Shown piece after piece: positions 3,418 through 63,160 of a stretch of DNA of 64,000 nt. How positions within the stretch are numbered: the stretch's first letter is position 1; every line of letters starts with the position of its first letter. Both the position numbers and the translations under genes were made by a program. A model generated the notes under the pieces. The model was not told where the DNA came from and made no database searches. It saw nothing but the letters and a program-made list of their open reading frames with translations. The stretch comes from Polyangiales bacterium (GTDB lineage: Bacteria > Myxococcota_A > Polyangia > Polyangiales > Houyiibacteriaceae), in assembly GCA_045106895.1 (NCBI GenBank), contig JBGCFM010000024.1, positions 64,001-128,000 on the forward strand, in the 5' to 3' direction.

Positions 3418-3428
3418 CTATTTGGGGC

Positions 3429-3794
3429 ATGACCTCCTCGAACGACGCGACCATTTGGACGGCCCCGAAGAAGCTGCGTCGGCCACGTCGCGCCGATGAG
3501 AGCGGAGTACAGCGGACAGAGCCCAAGAAGCTCAAGCCTTTCACGGTCACGCCGGACGTCGACGCCCTTGGTTATGACCCCTTTGAGGATCAGCCCACCC
3601 TCGTCCACGCCGAGTCGTGGCGCGCTTCGGTGAAGCCCCCTACAGACTTTCCCCTCCCGTTGCACCAGAAGAAGGTCAGCTGGCTCGACTCGCTGCCTGA
3701 AGCGGCGCGCGCCGTCCTGATGGCCGCCGCGGAGCCCGTCGACATGGACGCACCTCGTATCGCTGGCGCCATCGCTCAACCTCGCGAAGACTGA
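3429..3794 (+). CDS. Hypothetical protein
   Basis: 121-aa ORF ending 5 bp before aguA, co-directional. Confidence 0.55.
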   Translation: MTSSNDATIWTAPKKLRRPRRADESGVQRTEPKKLKPFTVTPDVDALGYDPFEDQPTLVHAESWRASVKPPTDFPLPLHQKKVSWLDSLPEAARAVLMAAAEPVDMDAPRIAGAIAQPRED

Positions 3795-3799
3795 ACTCG

Positions 3800-4759
3800 A
3801 TGCATGTGCCCGCCGAGCACCATCGCCACGACGCCTGCTGGCTCGCGGCTCCCTATCGCGACGAGGAGTGGGCGGACCTCGCTGGCGCTCAGCGCGAACA
3901 CGAAGCCCTCGTCCTCGCTATCGCCGAGACGGAGCGCGTAGAGCTCCTCACGCAGGAGCCCTCTGCCGCCGAGCGAGCGCATCCGAACGTGCGAATCCAC
4001 GATTTGCCTTACGGCGACTCCTGGACGCGCGACACGGGACCTGTCTTCGCCATCGACGACGGCGCCCTCGTCGCGCTGAGTTTTCGCTTCGACGGATGGG
4101 GCGACAAATACCTGATGGATGGCGATGCACTTCTGAGCGAAGGCATCGCAAAGGCCGCTGGAGTGCCCATGAGGTCCTTCGACTTTGTCCTCGAAGGCGG
4201 CGCCGTGGAATTCGACGGAGAGGGCACGTTGCTCACCACCTCGTGCCTGAGCTTGCCGAACCGGAAGCCTCCGGCGGACCTGCGCGCCCGAGTGAAGAGC
4301 GCTTTTGACGTGAACCACGTCATCGAGATTGAAGGGCAGCTCGCAAACGACCACACGGACGGTCACATCGACACCATCGCGCGCTTCGTGAAGCCCGGCG
4401 AAGTTGTCTGCATGCGCGGCGGTCCGGATGACCCCAACGGCGCCATGCTCCTCGCCATCGAGGAGCAGCTCCTCATGGCCACGGACGCTGCCGGACGCCC
4501 TCTCATCGTTCACACGATCCCATCGGCGGGCCTTCTTCGCGGCAGTGATGGCGAGCTCCTCGCGGCGAGCTACTGCAACTACTACCTCGCCAATGAGCAG
4601 GTCATCGTGCCGCAATATGGCGTCGCCAATGACGAGGCCGCGCTCTCCGCCATCGCCGCGCTCTTCCCCGAGCGAAGCGTCCGCGGCCTCGCCAGCCGCG
4701 CCATCATCGAAGGCGGCGGCTCATTCCACTGCATCACCCAACAGCAGCCAAGCTTATGA
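3800..4759 (+). CDS. aguA: Agmatine deiminase
   Basis: DSWTRDTGP, LEGGAVEFDGEG, DHTDGHID, ASYCNYY, GGGSFHCITQQQP. Confidence 0.95.
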   Translation: MHVPAEHHRHDACWLAAPYRDEEWADLAGAQREHEALVLAIAETERVELLTQEPSAAERAHPNVRIHDLPYGDSWTRDTGPVFAIDDGALVALSFRFDGWGDKYLMDGDALLSEGIAKAAGVPMRSFDFVLEGGAVEFDGEGTLLTTSCLSLPNRKPPADLRARVKSAFDVNHVIEIEGQLANDHTDGHIDTIARFVKPGEVVCMRGGPDDPNGAMLLAIEEQLLMATDAAGRPLIVHTIPSAGLLRGSDGELLAASYCNYYLANEQVIVPQYGVANDEAALSAIAALFPERSVRGLASRAIIEGGGSFHCITQQQPSL

Positions 4760-5634
4760 GTTCTGACATGGCCGAAGAATCAGCCGAAGACACGGACCTC
4801 TGCGTCGCCGCCATCCAGTGCGCCCTCGGCGACGACAAAGCCACCAATATCGCTCGCGTAGAACGTCTCGTGCGTCAGGCCGCGGCGGAAGGCGCCCAGG
4901 TCATCTTGCCGCCGGAGCTCTTCGAGGGGCCATACTTCTGCCAAGCGGAAGAAGAGCGCTTCTTCGATCTCGCTCATGAGTTCGAAGACCACCCGACCAT
5001 CGCGCACTTCGCCGGTCTCGCGAAAGAGCTCGGCGTCGTCGTGCCCGTGTCCTTCTTTGAGCGAAGCGGCCAATCGCACTACAACTCCGTCGCCATCATC
5101 GACGCCGATGGAAGCGTTCTCGGCAAGTACCGGAAGAGCCACATCCCCGACGGCCCGGGTTACGAAGAGAAGTTCTACTTTCGGCCCGGTGACACAGGCT
5201 TTTGTGTGTGGCCGACGCGTTTCGGGCGCATTGGCGTGGGCATCTGCTGGGACCAGTGGTTTCCCGAAGCGGCGCGCGCCATGGCTCTGGCCGGCGCCGA
5301 GGTCCTCCTCTATCCCACGGCCATCGGCACCGAGCCGGAGGCGCCGGACCAAGACACGCGGGACCCCTGGCAGCGCGCGATGATCGGCCACGCCGTCTGC
5401 AACGCAATGCCCGTCGTCGCGGCGAACCGCATCGGCACGGAAGGCGGCATGACCTTTTACGGCTCCAGCTTCGTCGCGGACGGGCGCGGGGACAAGCGGG
5501 CAGAACTCTCGCGAACGGAAGAAGGCATCGCAACGGCGCGCTTTGACCGCGCCGCGCTACGGCGTGAGCGTGCCGGTTGGGGCTTCTTCCGGGACCGGCG
5601 TCCCGAGCTCTATGGGCCGCTGATGAAGGCGTAG
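4756..5634 (+). CDS. aguB: N-carbamoylputrescine amidase
   Basis: Nitrilase triad: PELF, YRKSHIPDGPGYEEKFYF, ICWDQWFPE; ATGA overlap with aguA. Confidence 0.95.
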   Translation: MSSDMAEESAEDTDLCVAAIQCALGDDKATNIARVERLVRQAAAEGAQVILPPELFEGPYFCQAEEERFFDLAHEFEDHPTIAHFAGLAKELGVVVPVSFFERSGQSHYNSVAIIDADGSVLGKYRKSHIPDGPGYEEKFYFRPGDTGFCVWPTRFGRIGVGICWDQWFPEAARAMALAGAEVLLYPTAIGTEPEAPDQDTRDPWQRAMIGHAVCNAMPVVAANRIGTEGGMTFYGSSFVADGRGDKRAELSRTEEGIATARFDRAALRRERAGWGFFRDRRPELYGPLMKA

Positions 5635-21237: not shown

Positions 21238-22022
21238 GCGAAGAGGCCACGGTTCCTGAAGACGACGTCGAGATGGGCTTCTTCGAACATATCGGAGAGC
21301 TTCGAACCCGACTTGTTCACGCCATCTACGGCATCCTTCCGGCAGCCGCGCTCTGCTTCGTCTTCGTCGAGGAGCTCTTCGCGTGGATTCGTAAGCCCCT
21401 CACGGACGCCTACATCGCGCGCGGCATGGAAGACGCGCCGATTCACTTTTCGAATCTGACGGACCCCTTCGTCGCGCAAATTAAGATCGCCCTCGTGTGT
21501 GGCGTTCTCCTCGCCTCCCCTTGGGTCTTCTATCAAGTGTGGGCGTTCATCGCGCCGGGTCTGTATCGCAAGGAGAAGCTCCTCGCGATCCCCTTCATTG
21601 TGTTCTCGACGCTCTGCTTCGCCGGCGGAGCGATCTTTGGGTACACCATCGTCTTTCCGCTGGCCTGTGATTTCCTCTTGAGCGTTGGCGAGGCCATGGA
21701 GGCCGAAGCGACGATCATGATCACGGATTACCTGGCTCTCACCACGCGACTGCTCTTGGCGTTTGGTGTGGTCTTTGAGATCCCCGTCGTCATCACCATC
21801 CTCAGCGTTATGGGCGTCGTCTCGTGGCGCGGCCTGCTGAAGTTCGGTCGCTGGTGGCTCTTGATATCCACGCTGGTCGCGGCGTTTTTGACTCCGCCGG
21901 ACGTGGGCACACAGCTTTTGATGCTCATCCCGCTCGTCGGTCTCTACTTCATGAGCGTCGGCATCGCGTTCATCATCGATTGGCGCCGCAACAAGAAGAA
22001 AAAGAAGAACGGGGAAGCATGA
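21234..22022 (+). CDS. tatC: Tat translocase TatC
   Basis: EHIGELRTRL, YQVWAFIAPGLY, FGVVFEIP, LTPPD. Confidence 0.95.
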   Translation: MSEEATVPEDDVEMGFFEHIGELRTRLVHAIYGILPAAALCFVFVEELFAWIRKPLTDAYIARGMEDAPIHFSNLTDPFVAQIKIALVCGVLLASPWVFYQVWAFIAPGLYRKEKLLAIPFIVFSTLCFAGGAIFGYTIVFPLACDFLLSVGEAMEAEATIMITDYLALTTRLLLAFGVVFEIPVVITILSVMGVVSWRGLLKFGRWWLLISTLVAAFLTPPDVGTQLLMLIPLVGLYFMSVGIAFIIDWRRNKKKKKNGEA

Positions 22023-56331: not shown

Positions 56332-58197
56332 CTATTCGGGGGTATCTGGGCTCAGAAGGAACCGCTGAACGTCGATGGGGCCTTCAAGCTCGCCCTCTTC
56401 GTTGGGGGTCTGAAGCGCCGCGGCCAACGCGCGTGCGTGTTCATCTTCGTCGTTCATGGCCAACACATCGTCCATGGCCGCGCGCGCAAACTCGCGGTCA
56501 CCCCGCTCGGCGTAGAACACAGCGTCTTGAAAGCGTCGCCAGAACACCTGGGCGCGCGTCTCGGCGTCTCGAACATCGAGGCGCTCCATGAGGTGCTGCC
56601 ATCGCCGGCTTTGGTCTTCAGCGCCTTCGCGGCGGTCGTTGTCGCTCGCGTTTGCGCTGACCACCTCGTAGTACGCGCCGCGAGGGACGAGGGTCCCGAA
56701 GAGCGTTGGGTCGACGCGAGGATCCAGCTCCAAAAGCACCGGGCGATCCCCTGCCAGGCTCTGAAGGTCGCTGAGGCGCACGTGGCCCACCATGAGAACT
56801 CCTCGCAGCAGGTCGCGCAGCGCGGGTTCCTCGGCGACAAGGTCGTCCACCATGCCCGGGTAGGGCAGAAGAGGAACCGGAACGAGGGTCACGTCCGGCC
56901 GAAGGCGCTCTTCCGCCTCGCCGCCCCAGTAGCGGAAAATGGTCTGCGGAGAATGAGCGATGACGATGGCTCGGTCCGGGAGGTCGCGACGGATCAAGTC
57001 ATCGAAGAGGTCGGCGTCGTTGAACCCAGCGAGGGAGGCTCTCTCGGCGTGCCGTGGGAACTGGCTGGCGCCTCCAAGGGAGAGAAGCACCACCACGGCG
57101 ACGAGCCACTTGGGCGCCTGTCGGCGTGCGCCGACGACCATTTGGAAGACCGTCGCGAGGAACGCGCCGGCCATCACCACGAGGGCCATCATCGCGGGGA
57201 TGAGGTAACCCAAGGCGTCCGGATTATTCCTCACGAAGCCCAGCCACGCGCGAGCGGAGAGAAAAATCAGCAGGATGAGCGTCCAAATAACGCCGACGCG
57301 ACGTGTTTTGGCCAAGCGCAGCAAGACGTAGAGCCCGATAAGAGCGCAGACGAGGAGCCCCACGTGGAGGCTGTCGGCGAGCTGCACGAGCACATCCGCA
57401 AAGCGCTCACCCAGCGGCTGAGGGACGCCGGCGCCCTGGTTTTTTTGGAAGGCCTCGGCGCTCACCGTCCAGTAGAAGCGGCTGAAGCTGTCCGGATGTC
57501 CCAAGCGAAGCGCAGCGTCACTGCCGGCGCGAAGCGGCAGGTAAACGTAGGTGAGGAGACCGGCGAGGCCGGCTGTTGCAGCGAAGCCGAGGCCTCGAAA
57601 CCCGCGCTCGCGGACCCAGCGGCCCAGCGTCGCGGCGGCGGCGGGAAGAAGCAGAAGCGCGAGGAGATGGTGGTTCGCCAGGGCCAAACCAAAGACGAAG
57701 GCGCCCGCGACGAGAAAGCGTCCTTTGGGCGGGGGCCACTCTTTCTCAAAGCGGATCAGCTGGCTGATGACGAAAGCGAGGAGCGCGGCTTGAAGTGCGT
57801 ATACCTCAGGCCGAACCGCTTGAAACCAGAACCCAAAGGCGCCGGCGAGCCACCAAGTGGAGCCGATGGCGAGGGGTGTCGCGATCTCTGGCCCGGTGAC
57901 TTCGAGGTAGGTGCTTCGCGCCGCGCGGTAGAAAAAGAGCGTGGCGAGGCCCGCACACAGAGCGCTGATGAGCGCCACGCGGAACGCGACGGGACCGATG
58001 GGAAGCAGCATCGCCGCGCCATGGACGAGACCGGCGAGGGGATGGCCCGGCGGGTGAGCGATGCCGAGGTCCACGGCTTGCGCCACGAAGGTCCCGGAAT
58101 CGAGCCAATGAGCGGAAGGAGCGCTGGTGGCCAAATAGACCGCTGTTGGGACGCCAGCTGCGAGCATCGCAGGGCGTGGCCCGTCGCTCCACGTCAT
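56332..58197 (-). CDS. DUF2723/TMEM260-family membrane protein (putative protein O-glycosyltransferase)
   Basis: DSG, GIAHPPGHP, EVYAL, LANHH, YLPLR. Confidence 0.85.
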   Translation of the reverse strand: MTWSDGPRPAMLAAGVPTAVYLATSAPSAHWLDSGTFVAQAVDLGIAHPPGHPLAGLVHGAAMLLPIGPVAFRVALISALCAGLATLFFYRAARSTYLEVTGPEIATPLAIGSTWWLAGAFGFWFQAVRPEVYALQAALLAFVISQLIRFEKEWPPPKGRFLVAGAFVFGLALANHHLLALLLLPAAAATLGRWVRERGFRGLGFAATAGLAGLLTYVYLPLRAGSDAALRLGHPDSFSRFYWTVSAEAFQKNQGAGVPQPLGERFADVLVQLADSLHVGLLVCALIGLYVLLRLAKTRRVGVIWTLILLIFLSARAWLGFVRNNPDALGYLIPAMMALVVMAGAFLATVFQMVVGARRQAPKWLVAVVVLLSLGGASQFPRHAERASLAGFNDADLFDDLIRRDLPDRAIVIAHSPQTIFRYWGGEAEERLRPDVTLVPVPLLPYPGMVDDLVAEEPALRDLLRGVLMVGHVRLSDLQSLAGDRPVLLELDPRVDPTLFGTLVPRGAYYEVVSANASDNDRREGAEDQSRRWQHLMERLDVRDAETRAQVFWRRFQDAVFYAERGDREFARAAMDDVLAMNDEDEHARALAAALQTPNEEGELEGPIDVQRFLLSPDTPE

Positions 58198-60885: not shown

Positions 60886-62202
60886 CTAGGCGATGACGCG
60901 AAGCCGCTTTTTGGCATCTTCGGTTTCCCAGACGCCGCCGCTTTGCCACTTGAGCGCCATTACCTCTGCCACGGGGCGGCCCAGGATCGTGGCGTCTGCA
61001 CCTGGGGGAGGCGCGTCGATCACGACCGTCTCGAATCGGCCGTGGTCAAAGGGGTCACCTGCCGCTGCTTCCACGCGGCGCAGGACCTCGTGTTTGCCGT
61101 CCGCTTCGTAGGTGAGCGCACGGTGAATGCAATAGGGGTTATTGCCTGGACGCCCCATGATCACCTGGGCTGTCCACGTGCATCCGCCTTTGCAGATGTC
61201 CGCGTAGTAGCAGGTGCCGCAGAAGCCCCAGAGGTCTTCCTTGGTTCGCTCGGCGATGAAGGTGATGCGCTCCGAGCCTTCCATGACCTCGGCGACGGGC
61301 GAAGTGCGCGCGTTTCCGCCTGCGAAGTCCTCCGTGGGCAACGAGGGGCAGGCCTTGATGGTGCCATCGGCTTCCACGCCCATGCAGTCTTTGCCTGCAC
61401 CACAGCCGCCCCAGTGCGTGCCTTCTTTGCCGCCGAAACGAATGGCCTCTTCGTATTCACCGAAGTAGCCGATGTTGTTTCCAGGGAAGACATCGATGTT
61501 CGCCGGCGTGAGCTTCTCCTTCTTGAGCCAGGCGATGAGCGGAAAGAGCTCCAACAGATCGTAAGGCTGAAGAAGCAGCTCCGGCCGGTCTGCGGCGCGT
61601 CCCATCGGGACGGTGAGCTGAAGCTGCCAGGCTTCGACGCCTAGCTCGATGAGGAGGTCGGCGAGGGCCGGCAGCTCCGGCATGGAGAGCCGGTTGATCT
61701 GCGAGTTGACCCCAAGGCGAATGCCGGACGCTTGCACACGCTTCGCTGCAGCCACGGCGTTGCGAAAGGAGTCGCTCGTGCCGCGCTGAAGGTTGTGCGT
61801 GCGCTCGAGCCCATCGATGCTCATGGAGATGCCGCTCACCCCCGCGGCCACGGCACGGTCGATGCGCTCTTGGTTAAACCCGCGTCCGCCCGTCGTGATG
61901 CCGCAGGAGATGCCCGCGTCGACGATGGCTTTCGCGATGATGTCCCAGTCTTCACGCAGGTAGGCTTCGCCGCCGATGAGCGTGACCTCGAGCATGCCCA
62001 TCTCCGCCAGCTGACGAACAACGTCGAGGCACTCTTCGGTGCTCAGTTCGTCTTCACGCGCTTTGCCTGCCCGAGAGCCGCAGTGTCTACAACCAAGGTC
62101 GCAGGCGAGGGTGATCTCCCAAACGCAGTAGCGAACGCCCGGCGCGTTACCATTTCGCACCAGCTCTCGTGCGTCCTCGGTACGCTGAATGTCTTCGTTC
62201 AC
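60886..62202 (-). CDS. Radical SAM/SPASM peptide maturase, splicease (PlpX)-like
   Basis: WEITLACDLGCRHCGSRAG (CxxxCxxC), IGGE, SIDG; SPASM GCGAG...KACP...CGTC-x5-CKGGC...GNNPYC. Confidence 0.88.
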   Translation of the reverse strand: MNEDIQRTEDARELVRNGNAPGVRYCVWEITLACDLGCRHCGSRAGKAREDELSTEECLDVVRQLAEMGMLEVTLIGGEAYLREDWDIIAKAIVDAGISCGITTGGRGFNQERIDRAVAAGVSGISMSIDGLERTHNLQRGTSDSFRNAVAAAKRVQASGIRLGVNSQINRLSMPELPALADLLIELGVEAWQLQLTVPMGRAADRPELLLQPYDLLELFPLIAWLKKEKLTPANIDVFPGNNIGYFGEYEEAIRFGGKEGTHWGGCGAGKDCMGVEADGTIKACPSLPTEDFAGGNARTSPVAEVMEGSERITFIAERTKEDLWGFCGTCYYADICKGGCTWTAQVIMGRPGNNPYCIHRALTYEADGKHEVLRRVEAAAGDPFDHGRFETVVIDAPPPGADATILGRPVAEVMALKWQSGGVWETEDAKKRLRVIA

Positions 62203-62612
62203 TTTTTACGTTTGGGTGCGATGCCATACAACGCGACGACCCCAGGTCGCTCTACGGGATCCTCAAAGCGATCGGGGTCTTCCGGCTCTGGGTCGGGGTT
62301 GGAGGCTTCTGGCTCTGGCTGGGGCTCTGGCTCTGGCTCTGGCTGGGGCTCGGGCTGCGGAGCCGGCTCTGGAGCGGGGGTGGGCTGCTCGATGACTGGT
62401 TCGTTCGTCGGCTCCTCAGCTTGCGGCGTCGATCCCCCACACGCCATCGCGAAGAGCGAGGCCGCAAGAAGTCCTCCGCGACGTCCGCCCTGTGCTTTTC
62501 GGTCGCAGAACGGACACGAGGTCTTGGAGGGGGTCGCGCTTGCGTGAACATGTCGGCGGCAGCGCGTGCAACGCGTCAGTCCATCGACTGAAACTCGTTT
62601 ATCTACAGTCAT
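62199..62612 (-). CDS. Putative precursor A2: Zn-ribbon leader, lipobox, E/P stalk, C-terminal LYG
   Basis: CTRC-x14-CPFC, RRGGLLAASLFAMAC, PEP repeats, ALYGIAPKRKK; GGAGA RBS; GTGA overlap with the radical SAM gene. Confidence 0.8.
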   Translation of the reverse strand: MTVDKRVSVDGLTRCTRCRRHVHASATPSKTSCPFCDRKAQGGRRGGLLAASLFAMACGGSTPQAEEPTNEPVIEQPTPAPEPAPQPEPQPEPEPEPQPEPEASNPDPEPEDPDRFEDPVERPGVVALYGIAPKRKK

Positions 62613-62666
62613 CGAAGGTATCTCCAGCTGGGCATACCCAAGCTACGTTTGTGTTCAGAAAACGGT

Positions 62667-63071
62667 CTATCGACGTATTGGTGCGCGGCCGTAGCGGGCC
62701 ATCGGAGCCATATCGGGAGCAGGCTCGGGATCGAAGGGTTCGGCTTCCGGCTCCGGCTCCGGCTCTGGCTCCGGAGTCGCGATGGGTTCGGGCTCTACTT
62801 CGGGTTCAGGGTCCGCCTCGGGTTCAACGGCGGGTTCAACGGCGGACTCTACAGCAGGCTCGTTGGCCGGCTCTTCCGCCGCCGGCTCCGCTCCGCCGCA
62901 GGCCATCGCGAAGAGTGATGCCGCGAGGAGCGCTCCCCGTCGTGACTTCGGCGTTTTCTGATCGCAGAAAGGGCAGGCCGTCGCGCTAGGCGATTCGCCT
63001 GCCTGAACATGCCTTCGGCAGCCGGTGCAGCGCGTCAGTCCATCTGTCGAAACTCGTTTTTCTACGCTCAT
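62667..63071 (-). CDS. Putative precursor A1: Zn-ribbon leader, lipobox, E/P stalk, C-terminal RYG
   Basis: CTGC-x14-CPFC, SRRGALLAASLFAMAC, PEP repeats, ARYGRAPIRR; GGAGA RBS; clear paralogue of A2. Confidence 0.8.
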   Translation of the reverse strand: MSVEKRVSTDGLTRCTGCRRHVQAGESPSATACPFCDQKTPKSRRGALLAASLFAMACGGAEPAAEEPANEPAVESAVEPAVEPEADPEPEVEPEPIATPEPEPEPEPEAEPFDPEPAPDMAPMARYGRAPIRR

Positions 63072-63160
63072 TCTTCAGTCTCCAAGGCTTGGGACAGGAT
63101 ACGTGAGCACTTCCTTGGCACCAAGCTCAACTTTCTCGAGTCCGTGGTGTCCGAGGAAGC

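Follow-up and report, generated by a model that had tools for sequence, protein, structure and literature searches.

Within the window, i.e. the whole stretch of 64,000 nucleotides analysed here, two small precursor genes (B and A) and the gene of a radical SAM/SPASM enzyme follow each other on the minus strand. The following features were assigned, with the basis of each given in brackets:

60886..62202, minus strand: splicease-like radical SAM/SPASM enzyme of 438 aa (Pfam and NCBIfam matches)
62199-62202, minus strand: GTGA, in which the GTG start codon of the enzyme overlaps the TGA stop codon of gene A (read from the sequence)
62199..62612, minus strand: gene A, 137-aa precursor with zinc ribbon, lipoprotein-type signal, acidic Pro/Glu linker and C-terminal V-A-L-Y129-G-I-A-P (ORF and homologues)
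62214..62237, minus strand: putative splice site of A, V126-A-L-Y-G-I-A-P133 (Y129, G130 and P133 invariant)
62439..62483, minus strand: signal-like segment of A, with R44-R45, h-region G46-A57 and lipobox A-M-A-C58 (PROSITE-style lipobox pattern; C58 invariant)
62502..62582, minus strand: putative zinc ribbon of A, residues 11-37, with C15, C18, H21, C33 and C36 (invariant columns; AF2; weak zinc-ribbon matches below cut-off)
62622..62625, minus strand: GGAG ribosome-binding site, 9 nt 5' of the ATG of gene A (read from the sequence)
62667..63071, minus strand: gene B, 134-aa precursor with zinc ribbon, lipoprotein-type signal, acidic linker and C-terminal M-A-R-Y127-G-R-A-P (ORF and homologues)
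62679..62702, minus strand: putative splice site of B, M124-A-R-Y-G-R-A-P131 (alignment with homologues)
62898..62942, minus strand: signal-like segment of B, with R44-R45, h-region and lipobox A-M-A-C58 (residues 48-60 identical to A at 13 of 13 positions)
62961..63041, minus strand: putative zinc ribbon of B, residues 11-37 (invariant columns as in A)
63080..63083, minus strand: GGAG ribosome-binding site, 8 nt 5' of the ATG of gene B (read from the sequence)

The GGAG motif 5' of both ATG start codons indicates that the zinc-ribbon part of A and B is translated. The ORF translations agreed with what the first-pass annotation had described for both proteins, namely Cys15/18/33/36 in the arrangement CxxCRRHV ... 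CPFC, the pair R44-R45, the hydrophobic stretch LLAASLFAMA, and Cys58-Gly-Gly. Its statement that the leader represents the best-conserved part of the pair also proved correct, with 31 of 47 identities in residues 1-47 and 13 of 13 in residues 48-60, as compared to 26 of 70 in the linker and 6 of 15 in the C-terminal core. The region between Cys58 and the core would form a disordered, acidic, Pro/Glu-rich tether, and each precursor features a single C-terminal X-Y-G-x-A-P site, X being Leu in A and Arg in B.

Spliceases install β-amino acids in ribosomal products, and the native final products of these enzymes are, to our knowledge, largely unknown. The enzyme encoded at this locus contains the CxxxCxxC motif (C34-x3-C38-x2-C41) and exceeded the Pfam cut-offs for PF04055 (Radical_SAM, 70 bits) and PF13186 (SPASM, 25.8 bits). 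Its two best NCBIfam models both represent splicease-type families and were matched almost end to end, TIGR04103 with 472.6 bits (E 8.5e-142; cut-off 725) and TIGR03913 with 438.4 bits (E 2.5e-131; cut-off 591.75). Since these scores lie below both curated cut-offs, the enzyme is considered a splicease homologue and not an equivalog. The XYG motif expected of spliceotide precursors is present in both proteins adjoining the enzyme (LYG in A, RYG in B). A separate PqqD-like Y protein, the hallmark of type I (ternary) spliceotide systems, was not found: Pfam assigned none of the flanking genes to PqqD/RRE, peptidase, or transporter families, several flanking proteins having no Pfam family at all, and the radical SAM domain begins at residue 29, too close to the N-terminus of the enzyme to accommodate a fused RRE. 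The lack of an RRE gene beside the enzyme, to which the first-pass annotation had drawn attention, is nothing special: outside cyanobacteria, two-component spliceases lacking a Y protein have been reported to be the usual case (PMC11414181).

When the products of the neighbouring genes (membrane proteins of 203 and 390 aa and further proteins of 258 and 488 aa) were compared with the remaining loci that had been fetched, none was matched at E ≤ 1e-3. Most of these loci reach only some 1.5 to 5 kb past the matched region; over this range, the operon neighbours are not conserved. As judged from the sequence, we lean slightly towards regarding B-A-radical SAM as a myxobacterial two-component operon for splicease-type modification, the substrates of which would be pre-prolipoproteins.

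The cysteine-rich leader and its predicted docking on the enzyme

Among 18 homologues, the invariant positions were G11, T13, R14, C15, C18, H21, C33, F35, C36, R45, C58, Y129, G130, and P133, and the four zinc-ribbon cysteines together with C58 were retained without exception in a set of leaders drawn from many genomes (47 of 47). The putative Cys4 zinc ribbon is preceded by a short β-strand, both together covering residues of about 6-37. For A, the AF2 model of the ribbon contains a β-hairpin (12-14/21-23) with pLDDT values of 71-79, corresponding to moderate confidence. Comparisons with known zinc ribbons yielded weak matches below cut-off, namely Pfam Zn_ribbon_19 (17 bits, cut-off 30.8) and the PDB zinc ribbons of Nop10, Rpo12, and L32 (E about 0.01).

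The first-pass annotation had proposed that the zinc ribbon may serve as a built-in docking element for the modifying enzyme and might thereby retain the substrate in the cytoplasm up to its modification; complex prediction lends support to the docking part of this idea. For the enzyme and precursor residues 1-47, an ipSAE of 0.75 was obtained (runs 0.77, 0.64, and 0.75), as compared to 0.00 for the best of three controls. This score expresses the prediction model's own confidence; 116 of 157 solved complexes and 2 of 215 mismatched pairs attained this level, a calibration that does not extend to the self-made alignments and ligands used here. The runs shared at least 80% of the contacts, with a partner pLDDT of at least 69. 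In the predicted complex, the leader is placed on the bridging/SPASM region, enzyme residues 247-253, 261-265, 332-336, and 367 being in contact with precursor residues 6, 8, 10, 12, 14, 18-21, 23, 34-35, and 38, including the family-invariant S8, R14, H21, and F35. A search by sequence found no similar complex among solved structures.

Furthermore, leader type and enzyme clade seem to go together. Leaders of the CxxC-14-CxxC type with the N-terminal strand mostly occur with enzymes of at least 56% identity, and short CxxC-10-CxxC leaders mostly with enzymes of about 50% identity, both figures being uncorrected for relatedness; an exception is represented by the G006 enzyme (60% identical), the leader of which has no N-terminal strand.

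Alternatively, the ribbon might act on export (delayed targeting, or binding of a chaperone or SecA) or on precursor stability, the enzyme reading only the YG core. Precedent for this exists, since PlpXY splices leaderless tags (PMC11414181; PMC10533398); moreover, orphan family members are encoded far from any enzyme gene, and the case for docking is a structure prediction. The difference between 0.75 and 0.00 for the controls, the use of family-invariant residues at the predicted interface, and the apparent tracking of enzyme clade by leader type (uncorrected for relatedness) nevertheless argue against it, and we regard this explanation as unlikely.

The lipoprotein-type signal and the export route

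In A and B, the leader is followed by a basic n-region, an uncharged h-region of 12 residues, and a lipobox ending in Cys58. The PROSITE-style lipobox pattern was matched by A, B, and 77 of 88 family sequences. Position -3 is occupied by Ala instead of Leu, Val, or Ile, and the Cys at residue 58 lies outside the usual range of 15-35 because of the zinc-ribbon extension. Absence of Cys58 from homologues had been named in advance as an outcome speaking against lipoprotein processing; since the residue is conserved (invariant in the 18 homologues and the 47 leaders), this outcome did not occur. The genome encodes two lspA genes above cut-off, lgt-like genes below cut-off, and tatC. No protease or transporter gene was detected nearby, and Lsp cleavage could, as had also been suggested earlier, replace a leader protease.

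The Tat route put forward in the first-pass annotation was not supported. In that version, the system would be otherwise the same and R44-R45 would represent a true twin-arginine signal. In its favour, S/G-R-R-G-x-L is retained in A, B, and eight close homologues. A twin-arginine motif (S/T-R-R-x-F-L-K) is, however, not conserved across homologues, with RR being confined to A, B, and close kin. R44 is not conserved and only R45 is invariant, more distant members reading G-R-G-G or S-R-S-G, and RR stands directly before the h-region in 1 of 118 representatives. Tat-signal models gave no match at E ≤ 0.1. The location of tatC within the same window may be counted in favour of Tat, as may the fact that small hydrophilic unstructured proteins can be Tat cargo. 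However, the short hydrophobic h-region of 12 residues resembles Sec/SPII signals, and the mature part appears disordered and devoid of a cofactor. As the zinc ribbon would be cytoplasmic under Sec as well, it provides no reason for assuming Tat. Export of A and B probably proceeds via Sec, and Tat export is considered rather improbable.

Of similarly low probability is the explanation that the hydrophobic stretch escapes cleavage and persists as a signal anchor, making A and B bitopic membrane proteins whose cytoplasmic zinc ribbon has a lasting role in signalling or partner binding, comparable to zinc-binding anti-sigma factors. Membrane proteins commonly combine an N-terminal zinc ribbon with a single hydrophobic segment, the residue at -3 of the lipobox is unusual and the Cys far from the N-terminus, and one relative (L042) lacks this Cys. 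Against this stand the length of the uncharged stretches, which at 12-22 residues (12 in the clade of A and B) do not suffice for a stable helix, the invariance of Cys58 with small residues at -1, and the Gly/Ser/Asp/Glu-rich tether following the Cys, which is typical of lipoproteins.

Tyr-Gly sites and distribution among Myxococcota

The architecture was found to be family-wide in Myxococcota, where it represents a large myxobacterial family. A profile built from the leader only recovered 118 small proteins with zinc ribbon and lipobox among its best 150 matches; 21 long proteins among these 150 were multi-zinc-ribbon repeat proteins and not family members. At least one YG was present downstream of the leader in 111 of the 118 representatives, and 294 of 316 Tyr residues were part of YG; most of the seven representatives without YG appear incomplete, and two have YA instead. 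Likewise, of the 190 Tyr residues located downstream of the Cys in 77 family members, 147 belonged to YG, the consensus being P-x-Y-G-[ILVAG]-P-P.

In a hand tally with G000 left out, 59 of 89 zinc-ribbon matches had a splicease-like radical SAM gene no more than about 1.5 kb away, and 26 of 85 true matches did not adjoin an enzyme gene. For 28 of 30 non-adjacent matches, sequences were fetched; 24 were true members and four were false, and all 24 true members had a splicease-like radical SAM enzyme elsewhere in the genome. In the source genome, all three splicease-like radical SAM genes adjoin a zinc-ribbon/lipobox gene. A homologue of the enzyme is also named from Lujinxingia vulgaris, a cultured relative. 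The possibility that zinc ribbon and signal occur together on many unrelated lipoproteins was rejected, since the leader-only matches nearly always carry YG and the enzyme is encoded in each genome that contains a true member. At the sequence level, the coupling of the leader to both Tyr-Gly sites and the enzyme extends across the phylum.

With the PlpA splice tag GGPIRPLYGLPI, the family site shares the core P-L-Y-G-L-P (PMC10533398). Scott et al. (2022, Chem) are quoted for a list of splicease systems, 27 of them tested and 939 predicted, and the 27 tested pairs as splicing at diverse XYG sites (quoted in PMC10849128 and PMC10533398). That the enzyme catalyses a different reaction at the Tyr-Gly sites than the excision of tyramine, such as a cross-link or another modification of Tyr, is compatible with its scoring below the cut-offs of both splicease models, but is very improbable given the almost end-to-end matches to these models, the identity of the substrate motif with the PlpA tag core, and the diverse XYG sites of the 27 quoted pairs.

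Proposed mechanism and relation to known systems

According to the main reading, the zinc ribbon would dock in the cytoplasm on the bridging/SPASM region of the enzyme, as predicted by the complex model, and, as a recognition handle, take over the function of a PqqD-like partner. Still in the cytoplasm, the enzyme would excise tyramine at the Tyr-Gly site, as homology and motif suggest. The lipoprotein-type signal would then drive export, most likely via Sec, whereupon Lgt would lipidate Cys58 and LspA would cleave before it, zinc ribbon and signal being lost together. As the LspA cut would take off both parts, the general lipoprotein pathway would act as leader protease and exporter. We assign a probability of roughly 0.55 to this sequence of events as a whole. 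The product would be a lipid-anchored acidic tether of 77-80 residues bearing a ketoamide close to its unanchored end. It would likely inhibit proteases in the cell envelope, and the two copies would differ at the inhibitor specificity position (Leu in A, Arg in B).

A broader proposition is put forward tentatively: the substrate-borne zinc ribbon may be a new RiPP recognition handle replacing the PqqD-type element, with docking, export, and LspA-dependent leader removal combined in one disposable N-terminal module, and with lipid-anchored ketoamide protease inhibitors (Leu- or Arg-specific) displayed on the myxobacterial envelope. If true, a large myxobacterial branch would recognise its substrates by a zinc ribbon carried on the substrate, and not by a helical leader or a Y protein, and the housekeeping lipoprotein pathway could act as RiPP exporter and leader protease. 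It would also predict membrane-tethered ketoamide proteins as a class amenable to testing, and provide protein engineers with a compact, reusable docking tag.

A literature search, the list of splicease systems by Scott et al. (2022) aside, returned nothing on a zinc-ribbon/lipoprotein precursor architecture. The model TIGR04133 ('rSAM_w_lipo') matched the enzyme weakly (176.7 bits, cut-off 425). Going by its name, this family comprises radical SAM/SPASM enzymes paired with small lipoproteins, a pairing resembling the one described here; we know of no zinc ribbon or YG motif in it.

Closest in organisation are the two-component, Y-less systems of the RhaX/RhaA type from Rheinheimera (PMC11414181; PMC11626197), in which a radical SAM/SPASM splicease-type enzyme likewise adjoins XYG precursors without a PqqD-like Y protein, and in which a leader element of the substrate is also thought to bind and activate the enzyme. 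Their leaders are, however, α-helical and of the Nif11/NHLP type, whereas the leader here is a putative Cys4 zinc ribbon with a β-strand; in addition, a lipoprotein-type signal comes after it, a dedicated protease or exporter was not found, and the product would stay lipid-anchored. The type I systems of Pleurocapsa (PlpA/PlpX/PlpY and PcpAXY) share the enzyme family, TIGR04103 being the best model here, and a core, P-L-Y-G-L-P, that fits P-x-Y-G-[ILV]-P-P of this family. In contrast, they need a separate Y protein and have Nif11/NHLP leaders, and the enzyme of this study falls below the TIGR04103 cut-off.

With respect to export, the MNIO-modified bufferins offer a parallel. Their precursors are RiPPs with Sec signal peptides and, as in the system proposed here, a general-secretion signal takes the place of RiPP-specific export and cleavage, with cytoplasmic modification preceding export (PMC11626156). 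Bufferins differ in enzyme class and chemistry, and have plain Sec (SPI) signals with neither zinc ribbon nor lipobox; the bufferin signal is reported to be dispensable for modification.

Organization of the operon and its enzyme

The operon under study comprises two neighbouring precursor genes and the adjacent gene of a splicease-like enzyme, located in the window as follows:

62667–63071, minus strand: gene B, precursor ORF, 134 aa
62199–62612, minus strand: gene A, precursor ORF, 137 aa
60886–62202, minus strand: radical SAM/SPASM enzyme gene, ORF, 438 aa

The GTG start of the enzyme gene overlaps the TGA stop of gene A (GTGA, 62199–62202), and both genes are probably translationally coupled. 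Since GGAG precedes the ATG by 8–9 nt in both A and B, the zinc-ribbon part of each is translated. As described in the first-pass annotation, both proteins feature the leader C15-x2-C18-R-R-H21, C33-P-F-C36, R44-R45, LLAASLFAMA, and C58-G-G. Downstream of it are an acidic Pro/Glu-rich stretch and a C-terminal core with the putative Tyr-Gly (YG) splice site (V-A-L-Y-G-I-A-P in A versus M-A-R-Y-G-R-A-P in B). The leader was also confirmed to be the best-conserved part of the pair, with 31/47 identical residues at positions 1–47 and 13/13 at 48–60, compared to 26/70 in the linker and 6/15 in the core.

The enzyme matched Radical_SAM and SPASM above the Pfam cut-offs. Its best two NCBIfam models, TIGR04103 (472.6 bits against a cut-off of 725, E 8.5e-142) and TIGR03913 (438.4 bits against 591.75), represent splicease-type families; the matches run nearly end to end and remain below cut-off. 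Among solved structures, those nearest by sequence were SkfB and PqqE, and only in their radical SAM cores. Pfam assigned none of the flanking genes to a PqqD, peptidase, or transporter family, in agreement with the earlier statement that no PqqD/RRE gene adjoins the enzyme. Spliceases outside cyanobacterial type I systems have been described to lack the PqqD-like Y protein, and the leader element of the substrate binds at the Y position instead (PMC11414181); the absence of an RRE gene is thus normal here. None of the flanking genes recurred among the related loci compared. A membrane protein of 621 aa encoded at 56332–58197 (minus strand) matched the TMEM260-like protein O-mannosyltransferase family (PF11028, 91.6 bits).

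Zinc ribbon as a proposed docking element

All 47 leaders share the four zinc-ribbon cysteines, and H21, P34, and F35 are nearly invariant. Matches to zinc-ribbon families were weak (Zn_ribbon_19 below cut-off; Nop10, Rpo12, and L32 at E ~0.01), and AF2 yielded a hairpin at 12–14/21–23 (pLDDT 71–79), the remainder being disordered. The leader is inferred to bind zinc.

The complex of the enzyme (40-row alignment) with residues 1–47 of A (18 rows), one zinc, and three 4Fe-4S clusters was predicted with a score of 0.75 (runs 0.77, 0.64, and 0.75), whereas the best of three controls reached 0.00. Of 157 solved complexes, 116 attained this value, as did 2 of 215 mismatched pairs; the calibration is rough here, because custom alignments and ligands lie outside it. 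Contact agreement between the runs was at least 80%, with a leader pLDDT of at least 69. The predicted contacts involve precursor residues 6, 8, 10, 12, 14, 18–21, 23, 34–35, and 38, the alternation of the first five suggesting a modelled strand, and enzyme residues 247–253, 261–265, 332–336, and 367, representing the pre-SPASM segment and the SPASM domain. Among these, S8, R14, H21, and F35 do not vary within the precursor family, nor do E251, G261, H263, and Y333 among the enzyme homologues. The predicted complex and the comparative evidence hence support the earlier proposal that the zinc ribbon may be a built-in docking element.

Two-component spliceotide systems follow the same working principle; here, however, the leader is a zinc ribbon and is followed by a lipoprotein signal. 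Among RiPP precursors, general-secretion signals are already known from bufferins (PMC11626156). Literature searches returned no paper on splicease precursors with zinc ribbon and lipoprotein signal, which the survey by Scott et al. (2022) may nevertheless list.

Precursor family and its spread in Myxococcota

Sequence searches retrieved 17 relatives of the same layout. In the 18-row alignment, G11, T13, R14, C15, C18, H21, C33, F35, C36, R45, L49, A50, L53, C58, Y129, G130, and P133 were invariant, and R44 varied. To test independently whether leader and YG go together, a leader-only profile (47 leaders, start to Cys+2, YG region left out) was searched against 1.84 billion representatives, resulting in 4481 matches at E ≤ 1e-3 and 217 at E ≤ 1e-10. 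The best 150 of the 4481 comprised 129 small and 21 long proteins; the latter (P0169 and 20 others; up to 3179 aa and 38 zinc-ribbon repeats) were rejected as unrelated multi-zinc-ribbon repeat proteins. The strict zinc-ribbon-plus-lipobox pattern was present in 118 of the 129, of which 111 carried at least one YG and 102 YG-x-[PA]; 294 of their 316 Tyr residues after the Cys were in YG. The seven lacking YG were mostly truncated-looking, two having YA. In P0187, P0253, and L060:3973–4416, Y-A-x-P-P stands where Y-G would be expected. Across 143 sites, the motif reads [PVA]-[VQA]-[PA]-x-Y-G-[ILVAG]-P-P, its core being that of the PlpA splice tag GGPIRPLYGLPI (PMC10533398).

By source names of the matches, the system belongs to Myxococcota, where the precursor-alignment profile matched 90 and the enzyme search (E ≤ 1e-40) 148 of 401 genomes. 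Among zinc-ribbon-containing hits outside the window's own genome, 59 of 89 lay within ~1.5 kb of a splicease-like enzyme (hand tally). For 28 of the 30 others, the retrieved surroundings contained no such enzyme within ~4 kb or to the contig end; 24 were true members, all from genomes carrying the enzyme elsewhere, and four were false. The remaining two were L022, near the end of its stretch, and L036, which belongs to the family, carries two YG sites, and lies on a 2.6-kb stretch. The long leader form occurred mostly with enzymes of at least 56% identity and the short form mostly with those of ~50%; leader type thus seems to follow enzyme clade, in a tally that ignores relatedness.

The window's genome encodes three splicease-like enzymes, each adjoined by a zinc-ribbon/lipobox gene (window, L067, and L068). 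L067 (contig C271) features a short-type precursor with two YG sites (3421–3832, minus strand), divergent from its enzyme gene (4087–5214, plus strand; 55% identity). Locus L012 (G369 contig C209, 3340–5912) harbours five tandem precursor genes with one to four YG each upstream of one enzyme.

Lipoprotein-type signal, probable export route, and putative product

The order of basic residues, 12 uncharged residues (12–22 in the family), small residues, and the invariant Cys, with a Gly/Ser/Asp/Glu-rich tether behind it, fits a lipoprotein signal. This part of the first reading is likewise supported by prediction and by comparison. In L042:4071–4463 (minus strand), a relative that has the zinc ribbon and YG and lacks the lipobox Cys, the hydrophobic stretch ends in A-H-A-D, resembling an ordinary signal-peptidase I site. 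The genome carries two lspA copies, lgt-like genes, and tatC:

21279–21947, plus strand: tatC (TIGR00945, 203.6 bits, above cut-off), ~40 kb from the operon

Export via Tat, with RR44-45 as twin-arginine signal, had been proposed, but appears quite unlikely: R44 is variable, the twin-Arg is confined to the window's small clade, other members reading G-R-G-G, G-R-S-G, or S-R-S-G, RR directly before the hydrophobic stretch was found in 1 of 118 representatives, and Tat-signal models did not match the precursors. The signal peptide N-terminus is cytoplasmic under both Sec and Tat, so a folded zinc ribbon is no argument for Tat. Export via Sec is therefore favoured, as judged from sequence.

Cleavage by LspA before Cys58 would remove zinc ribbon and signal together, leaving a lipid-anchored acidic tether of 77–80 residues that would bear a ketoamide close to its end. 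Spliced peptides act as inhibitors of serine and cysteine proteases (PMC11626197). The residue preceding Tyr is Leu in A versus Arg in B, and close relatives split into the types …VVALYGIAP and …MARYG[RL]AP. Both types occur in P0003/P0006 and P0004/P0005, each pair apparently on one contig, as contigs of identical length suggest, which indicates that the Leu/Arg pair is conserved and suggests two putative inhibitor specificities.

In L068 (contig C222), the precursor (3652–4026, plus strand) beside the enzyme (4039–5286) has Y-G directly after the lipobox Cys (L-M-A-C-Y-G) and a Cys/Asp-rich remainder. This form was also detected in L039, L049, L052, L054, and L064; should such precursors be spliced, the modification would fall on the lipidated Cys itself.
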